In this document: positions 16,783 through 46,025 of the stretch, in pieces
How the letters are laid out: each line of letters starts with the position of its first letter
Numbering within the stretch: position 1 is the stretch's first letter
NCBI GenBank assembly: GCA_046732075.1
Contig: JBKPMI010000053.1
Coordinates: 1-48,852, forward strand
Length of the DNA: 48,852 nt
Reading direction: 5' to 3'
DNA from: Acidobacteriota bacterium
GTDB taxonomy: Bacteria > Acidobacteriota > Thermoanaerobaculia > UBA5066 > Gp7-AA6
Made by a program: the position numbers and the translations under genes
Notes under the pieces: model-generated
What the model was told of the DNA's origin: nothing
Databases searched by the model: none
What the model saw: only the letters and a program-made list of their open reading frames with translations

Positions 16783-16932
16783 TCGATCAGTATAGGTTCC
16801 GCCGGACCGGGCAAGCCGGAGAGCAACAACGATGGCAGCTATACGACCCCTGTCTAGTGCCCAATTTGCCCGACGCGCCGTACGATTCCGCTTCGATTCG
16901 CATTTCGTCAACGTCTGCTTCGGGAGGTGGGT

Positions 16933-18414: not shown

Positions 18415-18467
18415 ACCAAGATTAGGAGAAACCCGTCCGCCCCCGACGCTTTTCAAAGGAGGATTTC

Positions 18468-19961: not shown

Positions 19962-19998
19962 TGGAGTTCCCTTCACGTCTTTGCTTTGGGAGGTACCG

Positions 19999-21492: not shown

Positions 21493-21543
21493 AGCAAATT
21501 CCCGCGAAGCGTGGAACTCTCTTCCGATTTCAGGAGGTGGTGA

Positions 21544-25248: not shown

Positions 25249-25346
25249 TTCTTGCGCCGACAGGAAAGCCCCAGCACCTCGACAGCCCTTCGCTATTGCC
25301 GGGGCCCCTTGCCGCCGCCAGCGTGCCCTCGGAAAGGAGCCGAACC

Positions 25347-27188
25347 ATGAAGAGGGCTCGAGTTTCGCGGAAGGAGTCGAGCGCGCGTCATCCAGGCGAC
25401 CTCATCGGCAGGTCGCAGAGGACGCCTCTTCGAAGGACGGTCATGTCTGCGGGCCTCGCGGCGGTTCTGATCACTTCGAGCCTGTCCGCCCAGGATGTTC
25501 CCCTCCACAACTGGACGGTTCCGCCCTATTCGGCGACCAGCGGCAGCGGGATCCACACGATGACCGACGCGACGCCGCCCCGCGCCTTCGTGGGACTCGT
25601 CCCCTGCCGCGTCGCGGACACCCGGGGCAACGGCGCTCCGATCCAAGGCGGCATCTTCGGCAACAGCACGGCGCGCGACTGGACGGTGTCGGGAATTTGC
25701 GGGATCCCGGCGGGCGCCGATGCGATCTCCGTCAACTTCACCGTCGTCAGTACCGCGGCGACTCCGCAGGGAGCATTCCTTCTCGCCTGGCCGACCGGAT
25801 CGCCGCCTGCCAACCCGGTGGCGATCATGACCTACGGTCCCGGTGTCACGGTCATTTCCAACGCGGCGATCGTGCCGCTGAACGGATCCGGGCAGCTGAC
25901 CGTCAACGTCAGCCATTCGACGCACGTCATCATGGACGTCAACGGGTACTTTTCCGACAGGATCGGGAACCCGGCCAACTACCTCGAACTGTGGAACAAC
26001 GCTCCCGGCCTCCCGACGGCGTTCATCGTCAATTCTTCGACCGCGGACAATTCCTCCGGCGTATACGGCGTGGCCGCGGGCGGCGCGGCCACTCCGCTCT
26101 ATCCGGCGGCAGGCGTGCACGGGGAGAGTCCGTTCTTGGGCGTTCTCGGCGCCTCGTTTGCGCGGGGCGTCGTCGGAAGCCTCATGTCAACGCCGAACCC
26201 TTTCTCGTCGGAGCTCGCCCAAGGAATTCTCGCCTACCATGTCGACATTGCCGATCCCGCGATCCATGGTCTGGACGTCGGCGCCTTCGGCCAAACGGCA
26301 AGCTCGGTCGCCCAGTCGGCCGGCGTCATCGGCTACAACACAGCGCAGACCGGTGCGGTGGCCGGCGTCCGCGGCGTCATCGGCAGTCAGTCCGCCGGCG
26401 CGGCCGGGGTGCGGGGGCAGGACGGAGGGGGCGCTGTCGGTAACCCCAACGGTCAAAAGGCCGAATTCCCTTACCGAGCGAGCACCGGAGTACGGGGCGA
26501 ATCCCACCTGAACAACGGAGTCTTCGGGCTCACGAACCTGGGAATTGGGGTCATGGGCGAGGCGATCAACGCCAATGGTTTTGTCAATGCGTACGGCTTT
26601 CTGGGCCGCGGCGGCAACACGAATCTGGGCGTCTACGCGGGCGGAAGCTTCGAGGCCAGCGGGTCGAAGAGCTTCGTGGACCCGCATCCCACTGACCCAT
26701 CGAAAGTGATCCGGTATTACTCGCTCGAAGGACCCGAGTCCGGCACGTATTTCCGGGGGCGGGGAAAGTTCGAGCGCGGGATCGCGCAAATCACCGTGCC
26801 CGACGACTTCCGCATGGTCACGGATCCCGGCGGTCTCACCGTGCAGGTGACCCCGATCGGCAGCATGGCGTCCTTCGCGGTGCTTCGAGCAGATTTGAAC
26901 GAGATCGTCGTGCAGTGCTCGAGAAACGTCGAGTTCTATTACCTGGTCCAGGGAGTCCGCGCGACTCATCCAGATCTCAAACCATTCGGCCCCGGGGACG
27001 AGTTCCGGCCGGAAAGTGCCGACGCCCGGCTCCCCCTCTGGTTGTCGGAAGGTCAGAAACGGCTTCTGATCCAGAACGGCACCTACAACGCGGACGGCAC
27101 GGTCAACATGGAGACCGCGCGTCGTCTCGGGTGGGACAAGATCTGGGAAGAACGCTCCCGACCCGAGCCGCAACCGACGGAACCCTGA
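25347..27188 (+). CDS. secreted tripartite paralog 6 (longest core, type-B C-module)
   Basis: ATG at 25347 follows GAAAGGAG; an alternative start at 25443 gives MSAGLAAVLITSSLSAQD. It has N-module NWTVPPYSATS...VPCRVADTRGNGAPIQGGIF, a G[VI]xG-rich core at about 25953-26663, and C-module SKSFVDPHPTDPSKVIRYYSLEGPESGTYFRGRGKFERG. Confidence 0.85.
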   Translation: MKRARVSRKESSARHPGDLIGRSQRTPLRRTVMSAGLAAVLITSSLSAQDVPLHNWTVPPYSATSGSGIHTMTDATPPRAFVGLVPCRVADTRGNGAPIQGGIFGNSTARDWTVSGICGIPAGADAISVNFTVVSTAATPQGAFLLAWPTGSPPANPVAIMTYGPGVTVISNAAIVPLNGSGQLTVNVSHSTHVIMDVNGYFSDRIGNPANYLELWNNAPGLPTAFIVNSSTADNSSGVYGVAAGGAATPLYPAAGVHGESPFLGVLGASFARGVVGSLMSTPNPFSSELAQGILAYHVDIADPAIHGLDVGAFGQTASSVAQSAGVIGYNTAQTGAVAGVRGVIGSQSAGAAGVRGQDGGGAVGNPNGQKAEFPYRASTGVRGESHLNNGVFGLTNLGIGVMGEAINANGFVNAYGFLGRGGNTNLGVYAGGSFEASGSKSFVDPHPTDPSKVIRYYSLEGPESGTYFRGRGKFERGIAQITVPDDFRMVTDPGGLTVQVTPIGSMASFAVLRADLNEIVVQCSRNVEFYYLVQGVRATHPDLKPFGPGDEFRPESADARLPLWLSEGQKRLLIQNGTYNADGTVNMETARRLGWDKIWEERSRPEPQPTEP

Positions 27189-27210
27189 CTCCGACCATTC
27201 GAGAGCAAAC

Positions 27211-27244
27211 AAAGGGCCCCGGCTCGCGCCGGGGCTTTCGTTTT
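27211..27244 (+). terminator. rho-independent terminator (hairpin family 1)
   Basis: GCCCCGGC-TCGC-GCCGGGGC at 27216-27235, followed by TTTCGTTTT. It lies between paralog 6 and convergent regulator copy 2. Confidence 0.8.
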
Positions 27245-27254
27245 GACGACCAAT

Positions 27255-29237
27255 TCAATCCGCCAGGCCGGCGCGGCGGAGAATGTTTTGAAAGCGGGAA
27301 TCTTCGCGGAGGGGATCGTAGAAGGGATCCACCTTCAACGTCGCGATGACGCTCGACCGGTCGCGGAAGAGCTTCTCCAGGGAGTCGAGCGCCTTCTCTT
27401 TCTCGTTCACCCCAATGTAGGCAACGGGAAGCATCGGCATCGGGTCCGCCGGTCGATCCCGGCCCCACCGTTCCAGCCTTTCGAGCGCCTGGCGGGCCTC
27501 GGCGTGCCGGCCCAGGCGTTCGTACACGCAAACTTGAGCCGCCCAGCTCCAGGTCTGGTCCGCGATGCTGCGCCACTTCTCGACCTGCGCCAGAGCCTCC
27601 GAGTACATGCCCTTCTGCAGGTACGGCCAGACCACCATGTTGGCCTTCAGGAAGCGCGGTTCCCTCTCGAGTACCGAGCGGAACTCGTCGATCGCACGAT
27701 CGGGTTGCCCCGCGAAGTACCGGATCGTGGCGTGATCGGTCGAGATGATCAGAGAGAGCGGATCGAGCCGGCTGGCGCGCTCGCTCTCGACGAGGGCTTC
27801 ACGGAACCGTCCCTGGAAGGCCAGGAACTCGGCGTACCAGTGATGGGCCGTCGAATAGTTCGGCCCCAGCTCGATGGCCCGGCGAAACTCTTTCTCGGCG
27901 GACTTCCAGTCCCAATCGAACTGCTCCCGGATGAGCGCGAGGGACGTGTGGGCTTCGGCCAGGCGGTCATCGAGGTCGAGCGCCCGGATGGCCGCCGAGC
28001 GGGCCTTCGGCATGAGCTCCATCGGCGATCCGAGGTCGTAGGTGCTCATCAGAGCGTAGGCGTCCGCCAGGCCCGAATAGGAACGCGCGTACGCGGGATC
28101 CTTTTCCGCGGCCCGCGCGAAGTAAGCCACGGCCCGTTCGAACCCGTCGGCCGTACGCAGGTTCCAGAAGTAGCGGCCCTTCAGATAGAGGTCGTAGGCT
28201 TCGTAGCCTTCAGGTGAGAGGAGCGCGGGAGCGCCGGCCCGATTGCCGGGCTCGAGCGTGAGCTGGATCTGGTCCGCCACGGCCTGCGCAATCTCTTCCT
28301 GGACCGCCACGAGGCTGCTCAACTCGCGGTCGTACTGCCGCGACCAGAGATGGGTCTGATCGCTCATCTGGATGAGCTGGGCGCTGATCCGCACGCGGTC
28401 TGCGTCGCGCCGGACACTCCCTTCCAGCACGTAATCCACGCCCAGCTCACGGCCGATCCGGTCGAGCGAGGGCCGATCCCGGTACTGCATGACCGAGGTC
28501 CGCGCGATGATCGCCAGGCGCTGGGGATCGAGGTTTCCCAATCGGCCGATCATCTCTTCGGTCAGCCCGTCGCTGAAGTAGTCCTGCGCCGGATCGCCGG
28601 TCAGGTTTGCGAAGGGAAGAACCGCCAGCATTCGCCGCCGCCGGAGGAGTCGGGCGCGGGGCTGTTGGAGATAGACCGCACCCGCGATGAGCGCGAGCGC
28701 AAGACCAAGCACGATCAGCCGGTGCCGGGACGAGGGAGATGTTGCGGGGATTCCTGGACCTTCCCCTTGCGGGCGATCTCTCGGCTGAGGCCCGGCCTCG
28801 GAGACAGGAGCCGGGGAATGGGCGATGTCGGAGGCATCCTCCTCGACGGGAGCGATGAACCGGTAGCCTTTGCCGGTGACCGTCTGGATGAAACGCGGCT
28901 TCTCCGGATCGTCCCGCAGGACCAGGCGGAGCTTCCGGATCGCGGTGTTGACACTGTTGTCCACGTCAACGAAAACTTCCGGGCCCCAGACTCTTTCGAC
29001 GATCTGCTCGCGCGTGACGAGCTCTCCCCTCCGTTCGACCAACACGAGGAGCAGTTCCATCGGGATGCGCTCGAGTTTGAGAGCGCGGCCGGAGCGCCGA
29101 AGCTCGTAGGCGCGGAAGTCGAGCTCGAAAACCCGGCCGAATCGGACGGGCCTGGGAATCCCGGCTGGATCGAGTTCCACGGGCAGTTCCCTGGAGCAGG
29201 GAGCGAAACTGTAACCCGGCTCCGGATTCGGGCGCAA
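27255..29237 (-). CDS. membrane-anchored CadC/ToxR-like transcriptional regulator (winged helix + TM + TPR), copy 2
   Basis: 660-aa ORF collinear with 23242..25248 and similar along its whole length, with the same winged helix, single TM helix, LAVLPFANLTGDP...YFSDGLTEEMIGRLG region and TPR region. Confidence 0.85.
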   Translation of the reverse strand: MRPNPEPGYSFAPCSRELPVELDPAGIPRPVRFGRVFELDFRAYELRRSGRALKLERIPMELLLVLVERRGELVTREQIVERVWGPEVFVDVDNSVNTAIRKLRLVLRDDPEKPRFIQTVTGKGYRFIAPVEEDASDIAHSPAPVSEAGPQPRDRPQGEGPGIPATSPSSRHRLIVLGLALALIAGAVYLQQPRARLLRRRRMLAVLPFANLTGDPAQDYFSDGLTEEMIGRLGNLDPQRLAIIARTSVMQYRDRPSLDRIGRELGVDYVLEGSVRRDADRVRISAQLIQMSDQTHLWSRQYDRELSSLVAVQEEIAQAVADQIQLTLEPGNRAGAPALLSPEGYEAYDLYLKGRYFWNLRTADGFERAVAYFARAAEKDPAYARSYSGLADAYALMSTYDLGSPMELMPKARSAAIRALDLDDRLAEAHTSLALIREQFDWDWKSAEKEFRRAIELGPNYSTAHHWYAEFLAFQGRFREALVESERASRLDPLSLIISTDHATIRYFAGQPDRAIDEFRSVLEREPRFLKANMVVWPYLQKGMYSEALAQVEKWRSIADQTWSWAAQVCVYERLGRHAEARQALERLERWGRDRPADPMPMLPVAYIGVNEKEKALDSLEKLFRDRSSVIATLKVDPFYDPLREDSRFQNILRRAGLAD

Positions 29238-29351
29238 ATCCCCTGACCGGTAGCGGTTAGGCCTTCAGGAAAGCTCCAGCCACCCTACAGACCGCGTCCA
29301 TTGCCGCGGTTCCGCGCCGGCGGCAGGGTGCCCGCCGAAAGGAGCACTCGC

Positions 29352-30965
29352 ATGGACACGGGAGGTTGGGTGAAACCGGGTCGGCTCGCTTTGGGTCTCT
29401 TCCTCGGTGCGGCCGGGCTCCACGCCCAGGCCGACGTCCCTCTTTCGAACTGGACGGTGCCCCCATATGCAGCCTCCTCCGCGGGCGGCATCACCACGAT
29501 GACCGACGTCACGCAGGGAATCGGGTTCGTCGGGATCACACCCTGCCGGGCCGCCGATACGCGCGGCAACGGCGCCCCGATCCAGGGGGGCATCTTTCCC
29601 GACAGCGGTCTGCGGACGTGGGACCTGACCGGGATCTGCGGCATTCCCGCGGGTGCCGATGCGGTCTCGGTCAATTTCACGGTCGTTCCAACCGTGGCGG
29701 CGCCCTCCGGGGCGTTCCTTCTGGCGTGGCCGACCGGCCAGGCGCCCCCGCCCACCGCGATCATGACTTACGGGCCGGGCCAGACGATCATCTCGAACGC
29801 GGCGATCGTGCCTCTCGGCGCCGGCGAGCAGATGCAGGTCAACGTCAGCCACTCGACTCACGTCATCATGGACGTCAACGGATACTTCACGGACGCCTAC
29901 AACCCCGGGGTCCGTTTTACAGCAACCATCTCGGGGGTGGGAGGGGCGGTCCAAGGGAGAAACGTCGCGACTCTGGCGGGTGCATACGGGGTCGAGGGCA
30001 GCATTTCAACGACAACCTCGGCAAACAGCTCTGCCGGGGTGCGCGGCATCAACGACGGGACGGGAGCCGCCGGAATCGGAGTCTGGGGATCCCAGGCCGG
30101 CAGCGGCTGGGGCGTCTTCGGCGAAGCGCCGACGGGCTTCGGCGTCGTCGGGAGAGTCGCAACGGACATCGCCAACAGGGCCGGAGTGCTGGGACAGTCG
30201 GGATTCGTCACTCCGGCTGGCAGCTACTCGACGGCGGGCGTTCGTGGCGAAGGGAGAGCCGGCGTGCTCGGGGTCAGCGGAAACTTCCTGGGCGGAGGTG
30301 AAGCAGTCGTCGGGTCTCTGGTCGACGGCTTCGGCGCCGAGATCCGATACGGTTCACTCGCAACCAGTTTCGGAGTCAATCCCTCGGGCGGCAGTGCTCC
30401 CTGGGCGGTCTTCGGGGGCGGAGACATCGGCGCGACCGGGACGAAACACTTCCTCGACCCGCATCCGACCGACGCGGCCAAGGAAATCGCCTATATCTCG
30501 CTCGAAGGGCCGGAGGCCGGGACGTATTTCCGCGGGCGCTCCAAGTTCCAGAACGGCATGGCGCGGATTCCCGTGCCCGACCATTTCCGTTTCGTGACGG
30601 ATCCGGAGGGTCTGACCGTGCAGATCACGCCAATTGGGGCGATGGCGAGCGTCGCCGTCCTGAAGATGGACTTGAACGAGATCGTCGTCCAGGCTTCCCG
30701 CAACGTGGAGTTCTCCTACCTGGTTCAGGGAGTTCGCTCCACGTTCAAGGACCTTTCCCCGATCCGGGAAAGCGGCGACTTCATGCCCCGGTTCGCCGAC
30801 GCGAAGATGCCGGGGTGGTTGAGTCCCGCTCAAAAGCGCCTGCTCATCCAGAACGGGACCTACCGGGAGGACGGCACGGTCAATTCGGAGACCGCGCAAC
30901 GTCTGGGTTGGGACAAGGTCTGGGAGCAGCGCTCCCGACCCGCGCCGCAAGCCTCCCAGCCCTAA
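29352..30965 (+). CDS. secreted tripartite paralog 7 (type-B C-module)
   Basis: ATG at 29352 follows GAAAGGAG, giving MDTGGWVKPGRLALGLFLGAAGLHAQAD. It has N-module NWTVPPYAASS...TPCRAADTRGNGAPIQGGIF and C-module KHFLDPHPTDAAKEIAYISLEGPEAGTYFRGRSKF. Confidence 0.9.
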   Translation: MDTGGWVKPGRLALGLFLGAAGLHAQADVPLSNWTVPPYAASSAGGITTMTDVTQGIGFVGITPCRAADTRGNGAPIQGGIFPDSGLRTWDLTGICGIPAGADAVSVNFTVVPTVAAPSGAFLLAWPTGQAPPPTAIMTYGPGQTIISNAAIVPLGAGEQMQVNVSHSTHVIMDVNGYFTDAYNPGVRFTATISGVGGAVQGRNVATLAGAYGVEGSISTTTSANSSAGVRGINDGTGAAGIGVWGSQAGSGWGVFGEAPTGFGVVGRVATDIANRAGVLGQSGFVTPAGSYSTAGVRGEGRAGVLGVSGNFLGGGEAVVGSLVDGFGAEIRYGSLATSFGVNPSGGSAPWAVFGGGDIGATGTKHFLDPHPTDAAKEIAYISLEGPEAGTYFRGRSKFQNGMARIPVPDHFRFVTDPEGLTVQITPIGAMASVAVLKMDLNEIVVQASRNVEFSYLVQGVRSTFKDLSPIRESGDFMPRFADAKMPGWLSPAQKRLLIQNGTYREDGTVNSETAQRLGWDKVWEQRSRPAPQASQP

Positions 30966-33144: not shown

Positions 33145-36082
<2,938 letters not shown>

Positions 36083-36129
36083 CGTTCGCGCTCGGTGACG
36101 TTCGTCACACTTCTCCGCGAAATCGTGCG

Positions 36130-36158
36130 TTGATTCGAGCCTTCCCGAGGTTTACGAT
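36130..36158 (+). promoter_or_regulatory. sigma70-like promoter candidate for paralog 8
   Basis: TTGATT (36130-36135), a 17-nt spacer, then TACGAT (36153-36158). It sits 7 nt upstream of where similarity to the paralog-9 leader begins. An equivalently placed TTGCGT-N17-TAGCAT precedes paralog 9. Confidence 0.45.
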
Positions 36159-36165
36159 CGGCCCA

Positions 36166-36361
36166 ATTCCGGCGGCCTGCGGACCTTGGAGGAGGAGGCG
36201 GCCATCGATTCCGTGGCAAGTGGTGTACGGGATGCGGTCTTAACCGCAATGGCGCACCCCTGTTCACCCCCACACACAACCGGATCGAAAGGAGGCGGGA
36301 AACCCAGACTTTCGTCGCTCGTCGTCAGAAGCCTTCGAAAGCCTTAAAGGAGGGAATCGAA
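36166..36361 (+). ncRNA. conserved long 5' leader of paralog 8 (candidate cis-regulatory RNA)
   Basis: The first ~65 nt (ATTCCGGCGGCCTGCGGACC...GGAGGAGGCGGCCATCGATTCCGT.GCAA.TGGTGTAC) are nearly identical to 38138 onward. A hairpin lies at 36233-36248, and a second conserved box CAACCGGATCGAAAGGAGGCGGGA lies at 36277-36300. A 1-nt indel and non-codon-like substitutions argue against coding. Confidence 0.45.
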
Positions 36362-37945
36362 ATGAAGTTCTCGAAACAACTCGGTTTCGGAATCACTCTC
36401 CTGCTTCTCGCCTCCGGTTTCGGCCTTGCCCAGAACATTCCCCTGAACAACTGGACCGTTCCGCCCTACGCGCAGTCGTCGCACAGCGGCGGCATCACGA
36501 CTATGACCGACGTGACGTCTCCCCGGGCATTCGTCGGCGTTCAGCCCTGCCGCGTCGCCGATACCCGTGGAAATGGCGCGCCCATCCAGGGCGGGATCTT
36601 CCCCAACAGCGGCCTGCGCACATGGGACGTCACCGGCATCTGCGGGATCCCCGCCGGCGCCGATGCGATCTCGGTGAACTTCACCGTCGTTGCGGCCGCC
36701 GGAATCCCGGCCGGCTCGTTCCTGCTGGCCTGGCCGACTGGCCAGGCGCCCCCGCCCACCGCGATCATGACTTATGGGCCGGGTCAGGTCATTTCGAACG
36801 CGGCGATCGTGCCGCTCGGCCCGGGTGAGCAGCTGAACGTCAACGTCAGCGGAAGCACCCACGTGATCATGGACGTCAACGGCTATTTCTCCGACAGGCT
36901 GCAGGATCCGACCCACTTTCTGGAGATTGACAACAACTCCACCGGGTACACGATTCGTATCGACAACGCATCCACATCCTGCAACGGCGCCTGCGGGCTG
37001 AGAGCGACCACGGCGAGCGGCTGGGCCGTCTCGGGTTACTCTCCGACTGACGTCGGTGTGAGGGGCGATTCAGACAGCTATAACGGCGTGTGGGCGCAGG
37101 CGACGAACTGGGACGCGCTCGCGGCCTTCGGCGGGCGAGACGGCGGCTATCTCCAGGGCGCGCGGCACGGGGCCATCGGCACGTCGACCAATACAACCGA
37201 TGCCGTATACGGCGTCATCGGAAGCGGTGTCTCCGCCAACGTCTTTTCGGCAGGCGTCTCCGGTCAGGTCAACCACGCGGCCGCGAATGCGGCTCGGTTC
37301 ATCAACAGCGGTCTTTCCAACGCGGACGTCTATGTCGGGACCAATTCCGGCGGCGTCGAATATGGTGTCCTGGCGCCCAACCTCAGGCTCCAAGCCGGTT
37401 CGCTCGTCATCACGGGGGCCACGAAGAACTTCGCGGCGCCTCACCCCGAAGACCCTTCGAAGGAGATCAAGTACGCCTCCGTTGAAGCTCCGACGGTGGA
37501 CGTCTATTTCCGGGGAACCGCGGAGCTCGTCAACGGAATCGCGCGGATCGCGATCCCGGATCACTTTCGTTTCACGGCGCGGGAAGGGACCTACATGACG
37601 ACGCTGACGCCAGTCGGTCGATCGGTTACCCTGAGCGTCGATCAGGAAGGTCCTGACGGAATCGTTGTTCGCGGCTCAGGAACCACTCGATTCCACTATG
37701 TCGTTTTCGCCGAGCGTGCCGAAATAGAAGGCTTCGAGCCCGTCCAGCGAAACGAAAGCTTCACTCCCGAAATGCTCGAAAGAGGTGGCGGTCCTCAGCA
37801 CCTTCCGGCACCGACGAGAGCACTTCTCGTGCGGAACGGGACCCTGAATCCCGACGGCACGTATAACCTCGAAACGGCGCGCGCCCTGGGCTGGACGATT
37901 CCCGAGCGTCCGACAGTGGCTCCGGCGCCCATTCCGAACCCCTGA
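36362..37945 (+). CDS. secreted tripartite paralog 8 (type-A C-module)
   Basis: ATG follows AAAGGAGGG. The signal peptide is MKFSKQLGFGITLLLLASGFGLAQN. It has N-module NWTVPPYAQSSHSGGITTMTD...QPCRVADTRGNGAPIQGGIF. The C-module KNFAAPHPEDPSKEIKYASVEAPTVDVYFRGTAELVNG...REGTYMTTLTPVG is closest to paralog 1. Confidence 0.9.
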   Translation: MKFSKQLGFGITLLLLASGFGLAQNIPLNNWTVPPYAQSSHSGGITTMTDVTSPRAFVGVQPCRVADTRGNGAPIQGGIFPNSGLRTWDVTGICGIPAGADAISVNFTVVAAAGIPAGSFLLAWPTGQAPPPTAIMTYGPGQVISNAAIVPLGPGEQLNVNVSGSTHVIMDVNGYFSDRLQDPTHFLEIDNNSTGYTIRIDNASTSCNGACGLRATTASGWAVSGYSPTDVGVRGDSDSYNGVWAQATNWDALAAFGGRDGGYLQGARHGAIGTSTNTTDAVYGVIGSGVSANVFSAGVSGQVNHAAANAARFINSGLSNADVYVGTNSGGVEYGVLAPNLRLQAGSLVITGATKNFAAPHPEDPSKEIKYASVEAPTVDVYFRGTAELVNGIARIAIPDHFRFTAREGTYMTTLTPVGRSVTLSVDQEGPDGIVVRGSGTTRFHYVVFAERAEIEGFEPVQRNESFTPEMLERGGGPQHLPAPTRALLVRNGTLNPDGTYNLETARALGWTIPERPTVAPAPIPNP

Positions 37946-37968
37946 TCTTCTCTTGACGACTCGGTTTG

Positions 37969-37997
37969 GGCCGCGGCGACGCCGCGGCCTTTTTTTT
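37969..37997 (+). terminator. rho-independent terminator (hairpin family 2)
   Basis: GGCCGCGGC-GAC-GCCGCGGCC followed by TTTTTTTT. Confidence 0.85.
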
Positions 37998-38102
37998 GGC
38001 GAGCCGAAGATCTTCCAGCCGCGGCGTTCGTCTCGGCTTCGCCCGGAATTTACAGAACGCCTGTGATACCAGTCACAGCGCCTTCTCACACCTTGGAATT
38101 CG

Positions 38103-38131
38103 TTGCGTTTGCACCAGGCCGGCGCTAGCAT
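38103..38131 (+). promoter_or_regulatory. sigma70-like promoter candidate for paralog 9
   Basis: TTGCGT (38103-38108), a 17-nt spacer, then TAGCAT (38126-38131). The conserved leader begins 7 nt downstream, the same geometry as at 36130-36166. Confidence 0.45.
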
Positions 38132-38137
38132 TTCTCC

Positions 38138-38328
38138 ATTCCGGCGGCCTGCGGACCTGGGGGAGGAGGCGGCCATCGATTCCGTCGCAACTGGTGTACC
38201 GGGCGCGGTCTTGCCCGCGGGGGCGGCAGCTTGCTCTATCCCTGACATTTCAACCGGATCGAAAGGAGGCGGGACACGACAATTGCTCTCGCGGTAAGAA
38301 CTTGGAGAGGTCTAAAGGAGGTACTCGG
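38138..38328 (+). ncRNA. conserved long 5' leader of paralog 9 (candidate cis-regulatory RNA)
   Basis: Homologous to 36166-36361. It has a hairpin CGCGG-TCTTGC-CCGCG at 38204-38219 and the conserved box CAACCGGATCGAAAGGAGGCGGGA at 38251-38274. Confidence 0.45.
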
Positions 38329-39879
38329 ATGAAGTCTCCCAAATGGATCGGATTCGGGATCGTTCTGCTGCTTCTCGTCTCAGGCGTCCTCGTCGCTCAG
38401 GACATACCGCTCAACAACTGGACCGTTCCGCCTTACACGCAGTCGTCGCACAGCGGCGGCATCACGACGATGACCGACGTCACAACCGCTCATCCGTTCG
38501 TCGGCGTTGCGCCCTGCCGCGTCGCCGATACCCGTGGCAATGGCGCTCCGATCCAAGGCGGCATTTTTGCCAACAGCGCCGAGCGCACGTGGGATCTCAC
38601 CGGAATCTGCGGAATTCCCGCGGGCGCGGAGGCGATCTCGGTGAACTTCACCGTCGTCGCCGCGGCCGGGATCCCGGCCGGCTCCTTCCTGCTCTCCTGG
38701 CCCACCGGAGGATCACCCCCGCCGACGGCGATCATGACCTACGGCCCGAACCAGGTTCTCTCGAACGCGGCGATCATCGTGCTCGGCCCGGGCGAGCAGG
38801 TCGAGATCAACGTCAGCGGAAGCACGCACATCATCATGGACGTCAACGGCTATTGGGCTCCGATCGCGGCTGCCGCGAACAACGCCCTCGTCTGGGAGAC
38901 GAGCAATACGGGCACGTTCGGAGCGGCGCGGATCCGCAACCTCGGAACTGGCCCGAACGTGCACGGCGTGACGGCGTTCACGGACTCGGTCGGCGCGGGT
39001 TCCGCCGGTCTGTTCGGACAAGCGACGGCGACGACGGCCACCGAAGTCTACGGGGTTCGGGGCCTCTCAGCCAGCAGCGGCGGGGACACGGCCGGCGTTT
39101 TCGGAGTCGCAGATTTCCGACCCGACGACAACTCTACTTGGAGCAAGGCCGGCGTCCGAGGGGAGAGCGCCGAGGGCTTTGGAGTGTTCGGCATCAGCGA
39201 GTACAGCGCGGTGCGGGGTCTCCTGACCGCGAATACAACCGGTGTCGGCCTCGCCAACGGCTACCTCGGTAACTCCTTCGGCGTCGACCCGAGTGGCGGC
39301 GGTGCCCCATGGGCGGTGTTCGGGCTCGGGGACATCGGGGCGAGCGGGACGAAGTTCTTCGTGGAACCCCACCCCACCGACGCCTCGCTCGTAATCAAAT
39401 ACGCCACGCTCGAAGGGCCCGAGGTGGGGACCTATTTCCGCGGCCGTGCGAAGTTCGATCGTGGCACGGCGACGATCTCCGTGCCCGAAACTTTCCGGAT
39501 GGTGACTTCCGAGGAAGGGCTGAGCATCCAGGTGACACCGATCGGGGAAATGGCCACGGTTGCGGTCGTGCAGCTCAGCCTCGACAAGATCGTCGTCAAG
39601 GGATCTCGCAACGTGGAGTTCTTCTACACGGTCAACGGCGTCCGCCGGGGCTTCGAGCAGATGCAGGTTCTCGCGCACGACTTCATGTTCGTGCCCGATT
39701 CGAAGGACGCGCCGATTCCGGCATGGTTGAGTTCCCATGAGAGACAGAGTCTCATCTCAAACGGAACGTACACGCCCGATGGCAAGGTCAACGCAGAGAC
39801 CGCGCAGCGCCTCGGATGGGATCGGATCTGGGAAGCTCGGGCTCATCCGCAACCTCGCCCGGAACCCAGCACGCCCTGA
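38329..39879 (+). CDS. secreted tripartite paralog 9 (type-B C-module)
   Basis: ATG at 38329 follows AAAGGAGG and lies in frame within the 37966..39879 ORF, giving MKSPKWIGFGIVLLLLVSGVLVAQD. It has N-module NWTVPPYTQSSHSGGITTMTD...APCRVADTRGNGAPIQGGIF and C-module KFFVEPHPTDASLVIKYATLEGPEVGTYFRGRAKFDRG. Confidence 0.9.
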   Translation: MKSPKWIGFGIVLLLLVSGVLVAQDIPLNNWTVPPYTQSSHSGGITTMTDVTTAHPFVGVAPCRVADTRGNGAPIQGGIFANSAERTWDLTGICGIPAGAEAISVNFTVVAAAGIPAGSFLLSWPTGGSPPPTAIMTYGPNQVLSNAAIIVLGPGEQVEINVSGSTHIIMDVNGYWAPIAAAANNALVWETSNTGTFGAARIRNLGTGPNVHGVTAFTDSVGAGSAGLFGQATATTATEVYGVRGLSASSGGDTAGVFGVADFRPDDNSTWSKAGVRGESAEGFGVFGISEYSAVRGLLTANTTGVGLANGYLGNSFGVDPSGGGAPWAVFGLGDIGASGTKFFVEPHPTDASLVIKYATLEGPEVGTYFRGRAKFDRGTATISVPETFRMVTSEEGLSIQVTPIGEMATVAVVQLSLDKIVVKGSRNVEFFYTVNGVRRGFEQMQVLAHDFMFVPDSKDAPIPAWLSSHERQSLISNGTYTPDGKVNAETAQRLGWDRIWEARAHPQPRPEPSTP

Positions 39880-39983: not shown

Positions 39984-41546
39984 TTGAACGTTTTCCCTCT
40001 GGCGCGCCGGTGCCCGGGGAGGGTCGTCGGCGCGCGGCGGGCTCTCCTCGGATTTCTCGGAGGTCTGCTCTTCCTCTCCGGGCAGGCTCCGGCGGCCACC
40101 TACTCGGTCGCGCGGTTCTCCGACACGCCGATCGTCTCGGGTCTCTCTTCCCCCACCGACCTCGCGTTCCTGCCGGACGGACGGATCCTCATCCTGGAGA
40201 AGGCGGGCCGCGTCCGGATCGTCGTGAACGGAGTGCTGCAGGCAACTCCGGCCCTCGACATCACCGGGATCGTGGACGACTTTTCGGAGAGGGGCCTGCT
40301 CGGGATCTGCCTCCACCCGAACTTCGCAGCGACCGGCTGGATCTACCTGTACTACACGACGAACGCCCCCCGGAACCAGATCTCGCGCTTCACGCTGACC
40401 GGGAACACGATCAGCGCTGCGAGCGAATTGCCCATCCTCCAGGACATCGAGGCGACCAACGGCAACCACAACGGCGGCACGATTGCGATCGGGCCGGATG
40501 GAAAACTCTGGGCCGCGCCGGGAGACTCCGGGACCGGAGGGGCCAAAGCCCAGGATCTCGCGGCGGCAAGCCCGAGCCGGTTCAACGGGAAGGTCCTGCG
40601 GATGGAGCTCGACGGCTCCCCCGCGGCCGGCAACCCGTTTCTCGGGGACGCAACCAAGGAGCCTCGGATCTGGGCGTACGGGTTTCGGAATCCGTTTCGA
40701 TTCTCGTTCCGCCCGAATGGTTCGCTCTACGTGGGCGACGTCGGCCAGTCGACCCGGGAAGAGCTCGACGTCGTCACGGCCGGCGGCAACTACGGCTGGC
40801 CCTATATGGAAGGCTTCATCCAGCAGCCGGGTGGTCCGGGGCCGTGTCCCGTGACGACGACCTGCCTTCCGCCGGTCTTCGACTACATCCGTTCGGTCGG
40901 GACCACGATCATCGGCGGCGTCTTCGTGACCGGCAACGCCTACCCCACTCTTACGGGCCGGTACGTCTTCGGCGACAACGGCTCGAGCTGGATCAAGTGG
41001 CTGGAGTTCGACGGGAACGACGCGTTGATCGGGACGCCGCCGACGGCGCCTTCTCCGGCCCTTCACGACCTGGCGACGGCGGCGTCGGGCCCCGTCGCTT
41101 TCCACCCGGCGCCCGACGGGAACCTCTACTACATCGGGATCAACACCGGAACCGTCTATCGCATCGACTACGCGCGGGATTTCTTCACCGTCACGCCCTG
41201 CCGCGTCTTCGACACGCGGGACCCCGCGGGACCGTGGGGAGGGCCGAGCCTCATCGGGGGCCAGGATCGCACGTTCGCGATCGCCGGCCGCTGCGGTATT
41301 CCGTCGACGGCGCGCGCCGTCTCGGTCAACGTGACCGTGACCGGCCCGACCGCGCCCGGCTTCCTGACGCTCTTCCCGGCCGGCGGGCCGCCGCCGCTCG
41401 CGAGCACGATCAACTTCCGCGCGGGTCAGACCCGCGCGAACAACGCGGTCGTGACCCTCGGCGGGGCGGGGGACATCGTCGTCCGGGCAGGCATGGCCTC
41501 CGGGAACGTCCACGTGATCCTGGACGTCAACGGCTACTTCGACTGA
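39984..41546 (+). CDS. secreted PQQ-dependent sugar dehydrogenase-like beta-propeller with C-terminal CRxDTR module
   Basis: In frame with the 39816..41546 ORF. The likely start is the TTG at 39984 (uncertain), ahead of a signal-like ARRALLGFLGGLLFLSGQAPAA. GSDH-family motifs are present (GLLGICLHPNF, NHNGGTIAIGPDGKLW, GFRNPFRFSF, GGNYGWP). The last ~121 aa (41181-41543) read FFTVTPCRVFDTRDPAGPWGG...RCGIPSTARAVSVNVTVT...LTLFPAG...INFRAGQTRANN...ILDVNGYFD, then the stop. Confidence 0.8.
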   Translation: MNVFPLARRCPGRVVGARRALLGFLGGLLFLSGQAPAATYSVARFSDTPIVSGLSSPTDLAFLPDGRILILEKAGRVRIVVNGVLQATPALDITGIVDDFSERGLLGICLHPNFAATGWIYLYYTTNAPRNQISRFTLTGNTISAASELPILQDIEATNGNHNGGTIAIGPDGKLWAAPGDSGTGGAKAQDLAAASPSRFNGKVLRMELDGSPAAGNPFLGDATKEPRIWAYGFRNPFRFSFRPNGSLYVGDVGQSTREELDVVTAGGNYGWPYMEGFIQQPGGPGPCPVTTTCLPPVFDYIRSVGTTIIGGVFVTGNAYPTLTGRYVFGDNGSSWIKWLEFDGNDALIGTPPTAPSPALHDLATAASGPVAFHPAPDGNLYYIGINTGTVYRIDYARDFFTVTPCRVFDTRDPAGPWGGPSLIGGQDRTFAIAGRCGIPSTARAVSVNVTVTGPTAPGFLTLFPAGGPPPLASTINFRAGQTRANNAVVTLGGAGDIVVRAGMASGNVHVILDVNGYFD

Positions 41547-41775: not shown

Positions 41776-43512
41776 GTGAAGTCACTGGCCGCGCTCATCG
41801 CCCTTGCCGGGGCGCTGCCGCTTTCCGCCGCTTCCCTGCCGAGCCCGCTGCGCTACTTCACCCACCCCGGCATCGCGGTCGAGCGCGCGGCGGCCGCCGG
41901 CGAGCGTCTACTCGACCTCGACCCGCGTGGCCTGGCTCGTCTCCGGCAGATTCCCGACCGCGAGGCCTTGACGCTCGAGAACTTTCCCTTTGCGCCGGGT
42001 GCGACCGGGAACCTCATCCTGGAGCGTTTCGAGATCGTCTCCCCGGACGGCCGGCTGATCGTCGAGGGACCCGACGGTGAGACGTCGCGGCCGCTTGCCC
42101 GCGGCATCCACTTCGAGGGTCACCTCGAGGGGGAGCCGGACTCCCGCGTCTACGTCGGCGTGCCGGGTGATTTTCTGGTGGCTGTCCTCCAGACGAGCGC
42201 CGGGCTCGTTTACGTGGGGCCGGACGGCCCGACGGAGGGACCGATCCAGCACGTCGTCCGGCGTTCCGACTCGCTCCGCTCGGTCGAACTCGCGCCGCTC
42301 GACTGGCACTGCGACGCCGACGACCTGACTCCTCCGCCGATCGAACGCTCGGGCCCGGGTCTGCGAGCGGAAACCGTGGCGGCCGTGTCCCGGCCGGCGG
42401 CGGCCTCCCTGTCCGCGCTCGCCGCGACGACGCTGAAAGACGCCGCGATCTCGATCGAGACCGACCAGGAGCTCCTGGCGAAGTTCCCCGGCGGCCTCGA
42501 CGCCATGACCTCCTACATCACGACGCTGATGGCGCAGAACTCGGTCATCTACCAGCGCGACCTCGGTGTCCACCTGACGGTCAACCGGATCCAGGCCTGG
42601 ACGTCGACCGACCCGTACGTCAAGACCGACACGCGCGGCCAGCTCGACGAGGTCGGCGACTGGTGGCATGCCAATCGGCCGAAGAGCTCCTATCCGCGAA
42701 CGGTCGTCACCTTTCTGAGCGGAAAATCCGTGACCGGCGGAATTGCGTGGCTGGACGTGCTCTGCGCCAACGACTTCTCCCAGAGCAATCACTGGGGAGG
42801 CGGGTACGGCGTGGTCCAGATCAACACGAGCTGGCCCTCCAACCTGTGGGACCTGCTGGCGACCGCCCACGAGCTGGGACACAACTTCGGTTCTCCCCAC
42901 ACGCATTGCTACAGCCCGCCGATCGACATGTGCTACTCGGGCGAGAGCGGTTGCTACAGCGGGACGGTGGTGAACCCCGGGCCGCTCGGCGGCACGATCA
43001 TGAGCTACTGTCACCTGCTCGTGGGGGGCTACGGGAACATCGACATGCGGTTCCATCAACGGTGCATAACCGAGCAGATGCTGCCCGAGATCAACGCCGT
43101 CGCCTGCCTGACCGACATGGCCGCGCCGGCGCCGGTCGCGACGAAGTTCTACACGGTCACCCCGTGCCGCGTGGCCGACACGCGCAACCCGACCGGACCC
43201 TACGGTGGACCGGCGATAGCCGCCAACTCGGACCGGACGTTCGCCGTCGGAGGACAGTGCGGGGTTCCCACGACCGCCACGGCCGTTTCGTTGAACGTCA
43301 GCGTCACCCAGCCGAGCGCGCTCGGATACCTCCGGCTCTACGCGGGCGGGACCTCCCTGCCGAACGCGACCGCGATCAACTACCGCGCGGGGCAAACCCG
43401 CGCCAACAACGGATTTGCGCCTCTGGGGACGGCCGGGACTCTGGCCGTCCACTGCGATCAGCCTTCCGGAAACGTGCAGGTTATAATCGATGTTAACGGC
43501 TATTTTCAGTAG
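41776..43512 (+). CDS. secreted reprolysin/M12B-like zinc metalloprotease with C-terminal CRxDTR module
   Basis: GTG start follows GAGGAGAGG. The signal peptide is MKSLAALIALAGALPLSAAS and the zinc site is TAHELGHNFGSPH (HExxHxxGxxH). The C-terminal module at 43147-43509 reads FYTVTPCRVADTRNPTGPYGG...QCGVPTTATAVSLNVSVT...INYRAGQTRANN...IIDVNGYFQ, then the stop. Confidence 0.85.
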   Translation: MKSLAALIALAGALPLSAASLPSPLRYFTHPGIAVERAAAAGERLLDLDPRGLARLRQIPDREALTLENFPFAPGATGNLILERFEIVSPDGRLIVEGPDGETSRPLARGIHFEGHLEGEPDSRVYVGVPGDFLVAVLQTSAGLVYVGPDGPTEGPIQHVVRRSDSLRSVELAPLDWHCDADDLTPPPIERSGPGLRAETVAAVSRPAAASLSALAATTLKDAAISIETDQELLAKFPGGLDAMTSYITTLMAQNSVIYQRDLGVHLTVNRIQAWTSTDPYVKTDTRGQLDEVGDWWHANRPKSSYPRTVVTFLSGKSVTGGIAWLDVLCANDFSQSNHWGGGYGVVQINTSWPSNLWDLLATAHELGHNFGSPHTHCYSPPIDMCYSGESGCYSGTVVNPGPLGGTIMSYCHLLVGGYGNIDMRFHQRCITEQMLPEINAVACLTDMAAPAPVATKFYTVTPCRVADTRNPTGPYGGPAIAANSDRTFAVGGQCGVPTTATAVSLNVSVTQPSALGYLRLYAGGTSLPNATAINYRAGQTRANNGFAPLGTAGTLAVHCDQPSGNVQVIIDVNGYFQ

Positions 43513-43524
43513 GATTAGGAGACC

Positions 43525-44016
43525 ATGATGAACAGATCTCAGTTGGTTCGCTTTTCGTTCCTCTTCGCCGCGGCGACCTTTTTGACGGTCTCCGCAGCCC
43601 GAGCCGTTGGACCGCTGCAGTTCTACTCCGTCACGCCGTGCCGCATCGCCGACACGCGCGCCGCCGTCGGAGTGAACGGGGGACCGATCCTTTCGCACGG
43701 CGTGATCCGCAACTTCGCCGTCTACACGACCCCCGCGAACTGCGGCTTGCCCGCGGACGGCACGGTCAAGGCCGTCACGCTGAATGTGACCGTCGTCAAC
43801 CCGACCAGCCTGGGCCACCTGACGGTCTTCCCGTACAACACGACGGTTCCGGTCGTTTCGACCATCAACTACGCAGCGGGCGAGCCGGCTCTCGGAAACG
43901 GCGCCATCGTTCCGGTGACGAACGATCCGAACTTCCAGATCTCCGTCCTCCCGGTCCTGGTCGGAACCGGCAACACGGTGCACGCGATCATCGACATCAC
44001 GGGTTACTTCAAGTAA
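43525..44016 (+). CDS. stand-alone secreted CRxDTR-module protein
   Basis: 163-aa ORF 12 nt after the protease stop, with an AGGAG ribosome-binding site. The signal peptide is MMNRSQLVRFSFLFAAATFLTVSAARA. A single module follows at 43621-44013: FYSVTPCRIADTRAAVGVNGG...NCGLPADGTVKAVTLNVTVV...LTVFPYN...INYAAGEPALGN...IIDITGYFK, then the stop. Confidence 0.85.
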   Translation: MMNRSQLVRFSFLFAAATFLTVSAARAVGPLQFYSVTPCRIADTRAAVGVNGGPILSHGVIRNFAVYTTPANCGLPADGTVKAVTLNVTVVNPTSLGHLTVFPYNTTVPVVSTINYAAGEPALGNGAIVPVTNDPNFQISVLPVLVGTGNTVHAIIDITGYFK

Positions 44017-44189: not shown

Positions 44190-46025
44190 ATGAGGAGAAA
44201 TCCGCTCCTTCCTGCGCTTCTCCTGCTGGCGACGCTCCCCGCCGCCGCCCGGGCGGCGCTGAACACGCCCCCTCTCCGAGCGGGTTGGCCCGTGGCACTG
44301 GCCGGCGCCGGAACCGTCCGCGTGAGCCAGCCGGCGGTGGGAGACCTCGACAACGACGGCGTGAAGGAGATCGTGGTCGGCACGGTGAATCGGAAGGTCT
44401 ACGCCCTCCGGGCCAACGGAACGGTCATGCCGGGCTGGCCCGTCACCGTGAGCGCCGAAGTGAACTCGAGCCCCGCGCTCGCAGACATCGATGGCGACGG
44501 ATTCCTCGACGTCGTGGTGGCCTGCGGGTCGAATTTCGATTCCACAGGGAACGGGCGGCTCTACGTCTTCCGGCGCGACGGAACCCTCATCTGGTCGTTC
44601 ACGCCGGTCGACGAAAACGGCGACGGACATCCGGAGGGGATCTACTCGACGCCCGCCATCGGGGACATCGATGGCGACGGGGACAACGAGATCGTTTTCG
44701 GATGCTGGGACTTCCGGGTTTACGTCCTGCGCAAGGACGGTACGCCGATGCCCGGTTTCCCGCCGAATCCGTCCGGCCTCGGACACGGGATCCGCGACAC
44801 GATCTGGTCCTCGCCCGCGCTCGCCGACCTCGACGGCGACGGAAAGCTCGAGGTCATCATCGGGGCGGACACGCACGCGGAGGGCCCGCCGATCAACACG
44901 CCGGACGGCGGCGCGATCCACGTCTTCCGCTGGAACGGGACGGAACTGCCGGGTTTCCCGCAGTACGTGAACCAGACGATCGTGTCGTCGCCGGCGGTGG
45001 GCGACATCGACGGCGATGGATACCTCGACATCGTCGTGGGGGGCGGCATCTACTACCCGGGCGCGGTCGGCCACCAAGTCTACGCGTGGAAGCGGGACGG
45101 GACGTTCGTTCCGGGCTGGCCGGTCACGACGACCGGCCAGGTCCTCGCCTCTCCGACTCTCGCGGACCTGACGGGCGACGGAAAACCCGAGGTGATCGTC
45201 GGCGACCAGCCGGAGGGGACGGCCGGCCCCTACCTCTACGCGTTCCGGGGAAACGGAACGCAGCTCTTCAAGATGCAGCCGAAGAGCTATTTCGGAACGA
45301 GCCCGAACGTCGGAGATCCGATCGTGGCCGACGTGACCGGCGACGGCCAGGTCGAAATCCTGGTGGCCGTCAACACTGAGATCGCGGTGATCGATCGGAC
45401 CGGCGTGCAACTCACCGACCCGGGCCCTCCCGGGAACGATCCCCGCCCGACCTATTACACGGAGACCGCAGTTTCCGGGGTGGTCGTCACGGACCTCGAC
45501 CACGACGGAGTTCTCGACGTCATCGCCGCGTCCGGTACCCCGTTCCCGTCTCCGACCGCCGCCGCGGTCTACGTCTGGAACCCGGCCGCGGTCGGACCGG
45601 CTCCGTGGCCCGCGTTTCGCGGCGACCCGCAGCAGCGGCGCGGCTACGAGGGGGCGATCATCGGTGCGGGCACGCGATTCTTCACGTTGACTCCGTGCCG
45701 GCTCTTCGACACGCGGGGCGGCTCCTCGCTCAAGGCCGGCGGCATGGCGGTCGCCGGAGTCGCGGCGCGATGCGGAGTTCCCCCGGGCGCCGAGGCGGTC
45801 GCCCTGAACGTCACGATCGTCCTCCCCGGAACTGCCGGCAACCTCCGCCTCTTCCCGGACGGGATTCCGACGCCGCTTTCGTCCACGATCAACTTCCGCG
45901 CGGGCCAGGTCCGCGCGAACAACGCGGTGCTCGCGCTCTCCCCCTTCGGGAACCTGCGCATCTTCTGCGACATCCCGACGGGATTCGCGGACGTGATCCT
46001 GGACGTCACCGGATACTTCCAGTAA
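44190..46025 (+). CDS. secreted FG-GAP/VCBS-repeat (integrin-alpha-like beta-propeller) protein with C-terminal CRxDTR module
   Basis: 611-aa ORF with signal peptide MRRNPLLPALLLLATLPAAARA. It has eight DxDGDG-type repeats (GDLDNDGVKEIVVG, ADIDGDGFLDVVVA, GDIDGDGDNEIVFG, ADLDGDGKLEVIIG, GDIDGDGYLDIVVG, ADLTGDGKPEVIVG, ADVTGDGQVEILVA, TDLDHDGVLDVIAA). The C-terminal module at 45678-46022 reads FFTLTPCRLFDTRGG...RCGVPPGAEAVALNVTIV...LRLFPDG...INFRAGQVRANN...ILDVTGYFQ, then the stop. Confidence 0.88.
   Translation: MRRNPLLPALLLLATLPAAARAALNTPPLRAGWPVALAGAGTVRVSQPAVGDLDNDGVKEIVVGTVNRKVYALRANGTVMPGWPVTVSAEVNSSPALADIDGDGFLDVVVACGSNFDSTGNGRLYVFRRDGTLIWSFTPVDENGDGHPEGIYSTPAIGDIDGDGDNEIVFGCWDFRVYVLRKDGTPMPGFPPNPSGLGHGIRDTIWSSPALADLDGDGKLEVIIGADTHAEGPPINTPDGGAIHVFRWNGTELPGFPQYVNQTIVSSPAVGDIDGDGYLDIVVGGGIYYPGAVGHQVYAWKRDGTFVPGWPVTTTGQVLASPTLADLTGDGKPEVIVGDQPEGTAGPYLYAFRGNGTQLFKMQPKSYFGTSPNVGDPIVADVTGDGQVEILVAVNTEIAVIDRTGVQLTDPGPPGNDPRPTYYTETAVSGVVVTDLDHDGVLDVIAASGTPFPSPTAAAVYVWNPAAVGPAPWPAFRGDPQQRRGYEGAIIGAGTRFFTLTPCRLFDTRGGSSLKAGGMAVAGVAARCGVPPGAEAVALNVTIVLPGTAGNLRLFPDGIPTPLSSTINFRAGQVRANNAVLALSPFGNLRIFCDIPTGFADVILDVTGYFQ

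Follow-up and report, generated by a model that had tools for sequence, protein, structure and literature searches.

A conserved untranslated leader with Shine-Dalgarno-like boxes ahead of two secreted-protein genes in an Acidobacteriota bacterium: a candidate cis-acting RNA element

Shine-Dalgarno (SD)-like sequences that stabilise the 5' end of a transcript have been documented in other bacteria (PMC12970973, PMC2358910). In such stabilising SD (STAB-SD) or polypurine elements, as in Bacillus thuringiensis cry3Aa, B. subtilis and mycobacterial katG, the SD lies far from the start codon in a long 5' untranslated region (UTR) and is not used for initiation. A similar layout is found in the 48,852-nt stretch of DNA analysed here (the window; contig JBKPMI010000053.1 of assembly GCA_046732075.1, an Acidobacteriota bacterium), where an untranslated leader of ~195 nt stands ahead of each of two genes for secreted proteins, paralogues 8 and 9 (leaders 8 and 9). 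They differ from the STAB-SD leaders in carrying two SD-like boxes inside much longer invariant sequence, in the position of the second (box 2), which is ~120 nt away from the 5' end instead of near it, and in belonging to Acidobacteriota; 30S binding and stabilisation are predictions for them. The leader is best explained as an RNA element that is specific to its lineage and acts in cis once transcription has begun, and the best-supported view of its constrained parts is that they act through their primary sequence, as a cis-acting 5' UTR. It represents a new, lineage-restricted leader family outside the catalogued ones, with precedents in kind among long conserved 5' UTRs that contain SD-like elements.

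The two window leaders consist of two islands of constraint within sequence that otherwise drifts. They are 92% identical over alignment columns 1-72 and 100% identical over the 24-nt box 2. The middle, at 54%, and the 3' part, at 57%, are close to the 58% identity of four-fold-degenerate sites of paralogues 8 and 9, measured within their conserved N-terminal domain. An earlier note on this DNA had described a nearly identical stretch of ~65 nt, a diverging middle and an identical box, which is what we find, and the three strings that it quoted (ATTCCGGCGGCCTGCGGACC, GGAGGAGGCGGCCATCGATTCCGT and CAACCGGATCGAAAGGAGGCGGGA) occur exactly twice each in the window, against 0-0.05 by chance. The -35/-10 pairs with a 17-nt spacer that it placed upstream can be read at both sites, and the similarity, said to begin 7 nt past the -10 hexamer, starts with ATTCCGG 7 nt past it at 36166 and 6 nt past it at 38138. 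Its remark that the other paralogues lack the leader also holds, since a search of the window with nhmmer --max returned two copies only, the next best match having E = 0.66. Written as RNA, the 5' island (block 1) is made up of S1 CGGCGGCCUGC, the purine box Pu1 GGAGGAGGCGGCC, and then CAUCGAUUCCG and GGUGUAC, and its GCCATCGATTC is invariant in 15/15 aligned leaders. Box 2, ACCGGAUCGAAAGGAGGCGGGA, is identical in both window leaders, and GAAAGGAGGC within it is again invariant in all 15. Not described in that note were a GTGA-N6-TCAC palindrome upstream, the twin occurrence of AGGAGGCGG and the nature of box 2 as a perfect SD with no start codon.

The core of box 2, GAAAGGAGG, is a perfect 9-nt, full complement of the 16S rRNA 3' end CCUCCUUUC (taken from a table in PMC10783764) and is invariant in the aligned leaders. 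No start codon was found after this core, and at the sequence level the leader therefore has what defines STAB-SD and standby elements, namely a 16S-complementary SD in the 5' UTR that is not followed by a start codon. The STAB-SD of cry3A is reported to have an identical sequence, GAAAGGAGG. The 9-mer AGGAGGCGG is common to Pu1 and box 2; it occurs four times in the window, always inside leaders 8 and 9, as pairs spaced by 97 and 100 nt, and at other loci the two copies are 96-102 nt apart. The shorter AAGGAGG has 10 matches in the window, four of them inside the two leaders. Box 2 sits 52-63 nt upstream of the real SD, and in the true ribosome-binding site (RBS) AAAGGAGG is followed by (G)AAUCGAA, a stretch similar to the GAUCGAA just ahead of the core of box 2 (direct repeat).

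Copies of the leader outside the window were collected from contigs encoding close homologues and, independently of the downstream gene, by scanning the metagenome collection and the genome collection once each for a DNA pattern. In all, 14 places on related contigs, either metagenomic or from metagenome-assembled genomes (MAGs), yielded 19 non-redundant copies, of which 16 are complete and 3 are truncated where the contig ends, with contigs that repeat one locus counted once; conservation beyond this duplication had been put forward in the earlier note as a check, and these copies provide it. Every copy found adjoins orthologues of paralogues 8/9 and lies upstream of them, and the usual order is gmd, leader and paralogue (at times twice), then the gene for a glucose/sorbosone dehydrogenase (GSDH) or an FG-GAP protein. 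The pattern scans gave three true matches (L008, L010 and L017), all upstream of orthologues, the eight others being chance matches in coding sequence. Homologues in other contexts (L016, L021/L022 and L023) have short spacers and no leader. A phage or mobile-element origin was considered and rejected, scans of viral contigs having given one chance match.

Across six loci that share gmd, four-fold sites of gmd are 51-77% identical, as against 72-88% for the leader overall, 83-97% for block 1 and 86-100% for box 2. Judged by this comparison, the leader is under clear purifying selection. Leader types form orthology groups across genomes (win_L9 and L001b share GTCG and ATTTCAACC), which makes the duplication an old one, with both copies retained; gene conversion alone therefore cannot explain the similarity. 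A separate observation concerns L028 (170-546) and L010 (3402-3023, minus strand), in which a ~170-nt insertion splits box 2 and leaves partial copies of it on both sides. The 3' part of this insertion is 83-88% identical to a coding stretch of a paralogue and looks like a recombination scar, and an intact copy of box 2 remains on the RBS side.

A leader peptide or N-terminal extension was also rejected. A frame beginning EEAAIDSVA is open in both window copies, but the leader is non-coding in view of the remaining evidence: substitutions between the window copies fall 7:6:9 over codon positions (manual count), orthologue leaders carry 1-, 2- and 4-nt indels that shift every reading frame, no conserved ATG, GTG or TTG preceded by an SD was found in the leaders, and the frame that runs on into the gene is not the same in copies 8 and 9. 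The earlier note had reasoned in the same direction from a 1-nt indel in the purine run, and that indel between the window copies is real.

Taken together, the reading that we favour, if tentatively, is that the leader is a docking place for 30S ribosomal subunits or for a protein recognising GGA or SD motifs, and that it controls translation or mRNA stability post-transcriptionally. The two constrained islands would then be built on SD-like purine boxes, Pu1 GGAGGAGGCGG and box 2 GAAAGGAGGCGG, which could dock 30S subunits or an RNA-binding protein specific for GGA/SD-like motifs without starting translation. Docking could set the stability of the mRNA and the loading of ribosomes at the true RBS, as in STAB-SD-type or standby-site leaders. 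Access to the boxes may in turn be modulated by competing pairings, S1 and Py2 both being able to pair with Pu1, and by pairing of CAUCGAUUCC with the spacer and start codon in many copies.

The complementarities on which such modulation would depend are present to varying degrees. Pu1 has two complementary segments, S1 and the similar Py2 (CGGCAGCCUGCUC.CCCC). For 13/14 leaders, folding predicts a 5' hairpin S1:Pu1 (-12.7 to -24.5 kcal/mol), in shortened form in L001a. The Pu1:Py2 duplex has -17.5 to -33.6 kcal/mol, with z against shuffled Py2 mostly between -1.5 and -4.2 and only -0.24 for leader 8; in L017 this inverted repeat extends over 17 nt with 88% complementarity. In leader 8, GGAATCGA (36353-36360) is exactly complementary to TCGATTCC of block 1 (36205-36212), an 8-nt inverted repeat at 100%, and in 9/15 leaders, including leader 8 and not leader 9, CAUCGAUUCC is complementary to GGAAUCG(A)AUG, which comprises spacer and start codon. 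The resulting duplex has -12 to -15 kcal/mol (z -1.9 to -3.2) in these nine and is weak in the rest, and masking of the start codon by block 1 was accordingly dropped as a universal mechanism. A hairpin GCCA...UGGC and a pairing of block 1 with box 2 were dropped as well, both being broken by natural variants (alignment, duplex energies).

Several points weigh against docking. That the region of the leader is transcribed at all, and from which base, is itself presumed. Binding of 30S subunits leaves GCCAUCGAUUCCG, GGUGUAC and the 5' CGGCGGCCUGCGGACC, which are equally invariant, unexplained; the complementarity between block 1 and the start codon is absent in 6/15 leaders despite an invariant block 1; and the +1 to +65 region may have a role at the DNA level. 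In addition, STAB-SD elements are known from Firmicutes and mycobacteria, and those bacteria may have a different set of RNases. It is because of the long invariant non-purine stretches that docking leaves unexplained, and because the transcripts and RNases of this lineage are uncharacterised, that we hold this reading tentatively.

Upstream of each leader lies a putative sigma-70-type promoter. The hexamers and spacer of the paralogue 8 promoter are kept in type-a leaders of other loci, and the hexamers of the paralogue 9 promoter are the same in the type-b leaders of L008, L010, L026 and L027. A promoter scan reports neither, each fitting the sigma-70 consensus at 8/12, below threshold; it is conservation across loci that argues for both, and the start site is deduced from them. 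The two promoter types are otherwise dissimilar, yet in both the similarity sets in 6-7 nt past the -10 hexamer. Further upstream lies GTGA-N6-TCAC, for which 0.42 matches are expected in the window and three are present, two of them ahead of the leader promoters; it is found upstream of 17/17 leader copies with upstream DNA to check. It looks like a CRP/FNR-type site, and class I CRP/FNR-dependent promoters resemble the present ones in having a TGTGA-N6-TCACA-type palindrome centred ~58-73 nt upstream of the presumed start. Unlike in those promoters, the leader begins 58.5, 63.5-66.5, 68.5 or 72.5 nt from the centre of the dyad, depending on the locus, so that the spacing of palindrome and promoter shifts by about half-turns of the helix between loci; helical phasing is not fixed, and the site is not phase-locked to the promoter. 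Each site is best explained as a self-contained expression unit in which a palindrome for a transcription factor is followed by a sigma-70-type promoter, then by the untranslated leader of ~195 nt and finally by the gene for a secreted protein. In a terminator scan of the + strand from 35900 to 38500, the sole terminator-like site is at 37968-37997, 3' of paralogue 8, which makes leader 9 and paralogue 9 a separate transcription unit; no terminator was found in the leader.

The leader could instead be a structured RNA switch, either a riboswitch or one responding to a protein or to temperature, in which helices S1:Pu1 and Py2:box 2 alternate with Pu1:Py2, the invariant AUCGAUUCCGUGGCAAG..GGUGUAC serves as a binding core and access to the RBS is gated. 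Translational riboswitches and other Rfam leaders are likewise long conserved 5' UTRs that end at the RBS, and competing segments could hide or expose it; trp-type 1-2-3-4 attenuators share the order of pyrimidine, purine, pyrimidine and purine segments, with 1:2/3:4 and 2:3 pairings possible. The direct repeats S1 CGGCGGCCUGC and Py2 CGGCAGCCUGC on one side, and Pu1 and box 2 with their common AGGAGGCGG on the other, do form two mutually complementary sets. Pu1:Py2 reaches -21 to -34 kcal/mol in most leaders (z -1.5 to -4.2) despite the fast-evolving middle, the predicted S1:Pu1 hairpin survives a 3-nt deletion in L004, and an AGC insertion in L015b strengthens both helices. In the small GCGG/CCGC hairpin the loop varies and the stem does not: the four stem pairs are kept in 15/15 leaders (one G-U), with a closing pair U-A or C-G in 7 and unpaired in 8. 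Against this stand the folding statistics. Relative to shuffles, the two window copies have minimum free energy (MFE) z-scores of +1.1 and +1.8, and a set of 14 leaders spans -1.5 to +1.4, with an average of about 0; the RNAalifold consensus energy (-35.5 kcal/mol) is about half the mean of the single sequences (~-73 kcal/mol). Its covariation term is +1.04, with a compensatory change in 1/44 predicted pairs, and a second run gave +0.56. An unbiased scan over all column pairs found no strong, well-supported helix. A hand-built model of three helices (Pu1:Py2, GCGG/CCGC and the RBS-proximal hairpin) has 87% of cells paired, but 114-155 of 500 shuffles equal it, a result obtained on ~12 distinct, closely related sequences. 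In the RBS-proximal hairpin, whose AGACTTTCG and CGAAAGCCT form a 9-nt inverted repeat with 89% complementarity, 87% of cells are paired and 4/9 pairs change on both sides, in one sequence each and not above shuffled controls; when realigned by eye, its closing pair is G-C in the leaders with CUUUCG/CGAGAG and C-G in those with UUUCC/GGAGA. Natural variants break proposed pairs (C to G in L001a, C to A in L015b, U to G in box 2 of L012/L026), and a 170-nt insertion between the two conserved islands is tolerated. With so few, closely related sequences this is absence of evidence for a fold and not proof against one. The earlier note did not recognise a known riboswitch class in the sequence, and none was recovered: the window and five related loci had no match at the gathering thresholds of Rfam 15, and the leaders had none even at E <= 10, the weak matches to terminator-containing small RNA models being confined to the terminator at 37968..37997. 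Nor is there any excess stability, covariation support or association with metabolic genes that would hint at a ligand. An attenuator was rejected on account of the terminator-free leader and the lack of a leader peptide; unlike the trp-type systems, the leader has no terminator hairpin with a U-run and no link to an amino acid or tRNA. We therefore think a structured switch unlikely, and it is equally doubtful that the leaders are a new RNA-switch class of the Thermoanaerobaculia-like lineage, with twin SD-mimic boxes and two similar anti-SD segments whose alternative folds would respond to a ligand, a protein or a physical signal and gate the translation of secreted or surface proteins.

Strong conservation of primary sequence without covariation is what recognition by a protein predicts, and a CsrA/RsmA-like repressor could bridge GGA motifs of the leader and the GGA of the SD, as in E. 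coli pgaA and glgC and B. subtilis hag. Those leaders, like the present ones, are long and have several GGA sites including one over the SD, a surface- or secretion-related gene downstream and conservation of sequence rather than structure. Here there are 6-10 GGA motifs per ~200-nt leader, one of them in the SD, and several are invariant (GCGGACC, GGAGGAGG, CCGGAU, AAGGAGG and the SD). The 52-63 nt between box 2 and the SD are within the range that a CsrA dimer can bridge. However, the placement of GGA in hairpin loops is inconsistent, the invariant stretches are far longer than a CsrA site, part of the GGA enrichment follows from the SD-like boxes themselves and the likeness is one of motifs, which leaves such a platform rather improbable in our view. 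A role at the DNA level, with the +1 to +65 region and box 2 as downstream operators that act with the upstream palindrome in roadblock or promoter-escape control, would agree with the conservation of primary sequence, with GGCGGCC motifs repeated ~28-30 bp apart, with a transcription-factor-type palindrome in every copy checked and with the lack of support for RNA structure. It is nevertheless distinctly unlikely, considering that box 2 and the real RBS share AAAGGAGG and an AUCGAA stretch, an RNA-level signature (complement of the 16S rRNA 3' end), that the conserved blocks are not dyad-symmetric and that, for both promoter types, the conservation sets in right at the predicted +1, as a transcript would lead one to expect. 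That the similarity has no function and simply reflects a recent duplication of the paralogues or gene conversion between them could be argued from the position of the copies, 2 kb apart in the same orientation within a large recombining gene family, and from the scar in the L028/L010 leaders, which derives from paralogue coding sequence. We consider this highly improbable: the blocks are kept across at least 10 distinct lineages, including the single-copy loci L004, L012 and L024, they stay 83-100% identical while silent sites of flanking genes are near saturation, and the orthology groups of the two copies indicate an old duplication, so that comparison across genomes contradicts it. Of the regulatory-RNA reading in the earlier note, what stands is a real, non-coding and duplicated element that evolves more slowly than silent sites; its riboswitch and attenuator variants do not, and binding of a protein or RNA partner fits the sequence features best. 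On present evidence the labels riboswitch and attenuator are unwarranted and should not be used.

Acidobacteriota are abundant in soil and, to our knowledge, their post-transcriptional gene regulation is almost uncharted. The leader is a clearly selected, family-specific 5' UTR attached to rapidly diversifying secreted proteins without assigned function. If its SD-mimic boxes do recruit ribosomes or a regulator, STAB-SD or standby control would extend beyond Firmicutes and Actinobacteria, and the promoter and leader could serve as a compact cassette for expression work in Acidobacteriota. The unit of palindrome, promoter and leader would also mark a small regulon that can be traced in MAGs.

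Table 1. Positions in the window of the leader elements, putative promoters, palindromes and neighbouring genes.
Feature	Position	Strand	Description
Leader 9	38138..38328	+	block 1 38138-38199, box 2 38251-38274, true SD AAGGAGG 38315-38321; ATG 38329
Block 1 of leader 8	36166..36228	+	strongly constrained 5' ~65 nt
S1 CGGCGGCCTGC	36170-36180	+	in block 1
Purine box Pu1 GGAGGAGGAGGCGGCC	36188-36203	+	in block 1; ~25-35 nt from 5' end
CATCGATTCCG	36203-36213	+	in block 1
GGTGTAC	36222-36228	+	in block 1
Small hairpin GCGG-N6-CCGC	36234..36247	+	invariant stem, variable loop
Pyrimidine-rich Py2/S3 GGCGCACCCCTGTTCACCCCC	36251..36271	+	complementary to Pu1; in fast-evolving middle of leader
Box 2 CAACCGGATCGAAAGGAGGCGGGA	36277..36300	+	core GAAAGGAGG at 36287-36295; holds second AGGAGGCGG
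Candidate hairpin just upstream of true RBS	36306..36344	+	AGACTTTCG (36306-36314) with CGAAAGCCT (36336-36344); loop with conserved GTCAGAA
True RBS of paralogue 8	36346..36364	+	AAAGGAGG (36346-36353), spacer GAATCGAA, ATG 36362
Putative sigma-70-type promoter, paralogue 8	36130..36158	+	-35 TTGATT (36130-36135), 17-nt spacer, -10 TACGAT (36153-36158)
Putative promoter, paralogue 9	38103..38131	+	-35 TTGCGT (38103-38108), 17-nt spacer, -10 TAGCAT (38126-38131)
Palindrome GTGACGTTCGTCAC	36095..36108		GTGA-N6-TCAC, CRP/FNR-like half-sites; centre 64.5 nt upstream of first conserved leader base
Palindrome TGTGATACCAGTCACA	38062..38077		perfect TGTGA-N6-TCACA; centre 68.5 nt upstream of first conserved leader base
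Paralogue 8	36362..37945	+	527-aa secreted protein; signal peptide, N-terminal beta-sandwich, Gly/Ser-rich variable middle, C-terminal beta domain
Paralogue 9	38329..39879	+	516-aa secreted protein with signal peptide
gmd (GDP-mannose 4,6-dehydratase)	35105-36082		upstream neighbour of leader 8
Intrinsic terminator 3' of paralogue 8	37968..37997	+	ten-pair stem (9 G-C), then T-run

Paralogue 9 is 51% identical to paralogue 8 overall and 81% over the N-terminal 176 amino acids (aa). Sequence searches of Pfam, NCBIfam and the PDB gave zero significant matches for either protein. An AlphaFold model of paralogue 8 (mean predicted local distance difference test score, pLDDT, 77.7) comprises the N-terminal beta-sandwich, a poorly modelled Gly/Ser-rich middle and the C-terminal beta domain, and Foldseek found no match to it in the PDB below E = 1e-3. 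Paralogue 8 has 787 homologues, two of which carry a source name, both labelled Thermoanaerobaculia MAGs; one leader-bearing genome contig is titled as an uncultured Acidobacteriota MAG. No record of the exact 527-aa product of paralogue 8 was found in the protein collection. The downstream neighbour of the two units is the gene for a GSDH-domain protein.

Elsewhere in the window the family is arranged differently. Four paralogues at 16927-23172 follow one another head to tail, separated by a mere ~20-55 nt, in an operon-like array that contrasts with the stand-alone promoter-leader-terminator layout of paralogues 8 and 9. A segmental duplication of ~4 kb at 23332-30965 includes two open reading frames (ORFs) without assigned function and one paralogue, with repeat spacings of 4007-4016 nt and 70-78% identity, and has a separate, different conserved sequence upstream of the paralogue starts at ~25296 and ~29301. 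The motifs PCR..DTR and H.I.DVNGYF characterise the N-terminal domain of the paralogues, which is found again at 41181-41540, 43147-43506, 43621-44010 and 45678-46019, as a C-terminal module on the downstream GSDH-domain, reprolysin-like metalloprotease and FG-GAP proteins; the motif pair has 12 copies in the window and marks an uncatalogued shared domain. Finally, a 637-aa ORF with a TTG start (37966-39879) crosses leader 9 in frame with paralogue 9, and gene callers may for this reason annotate a false N-terminal extension of that protein.

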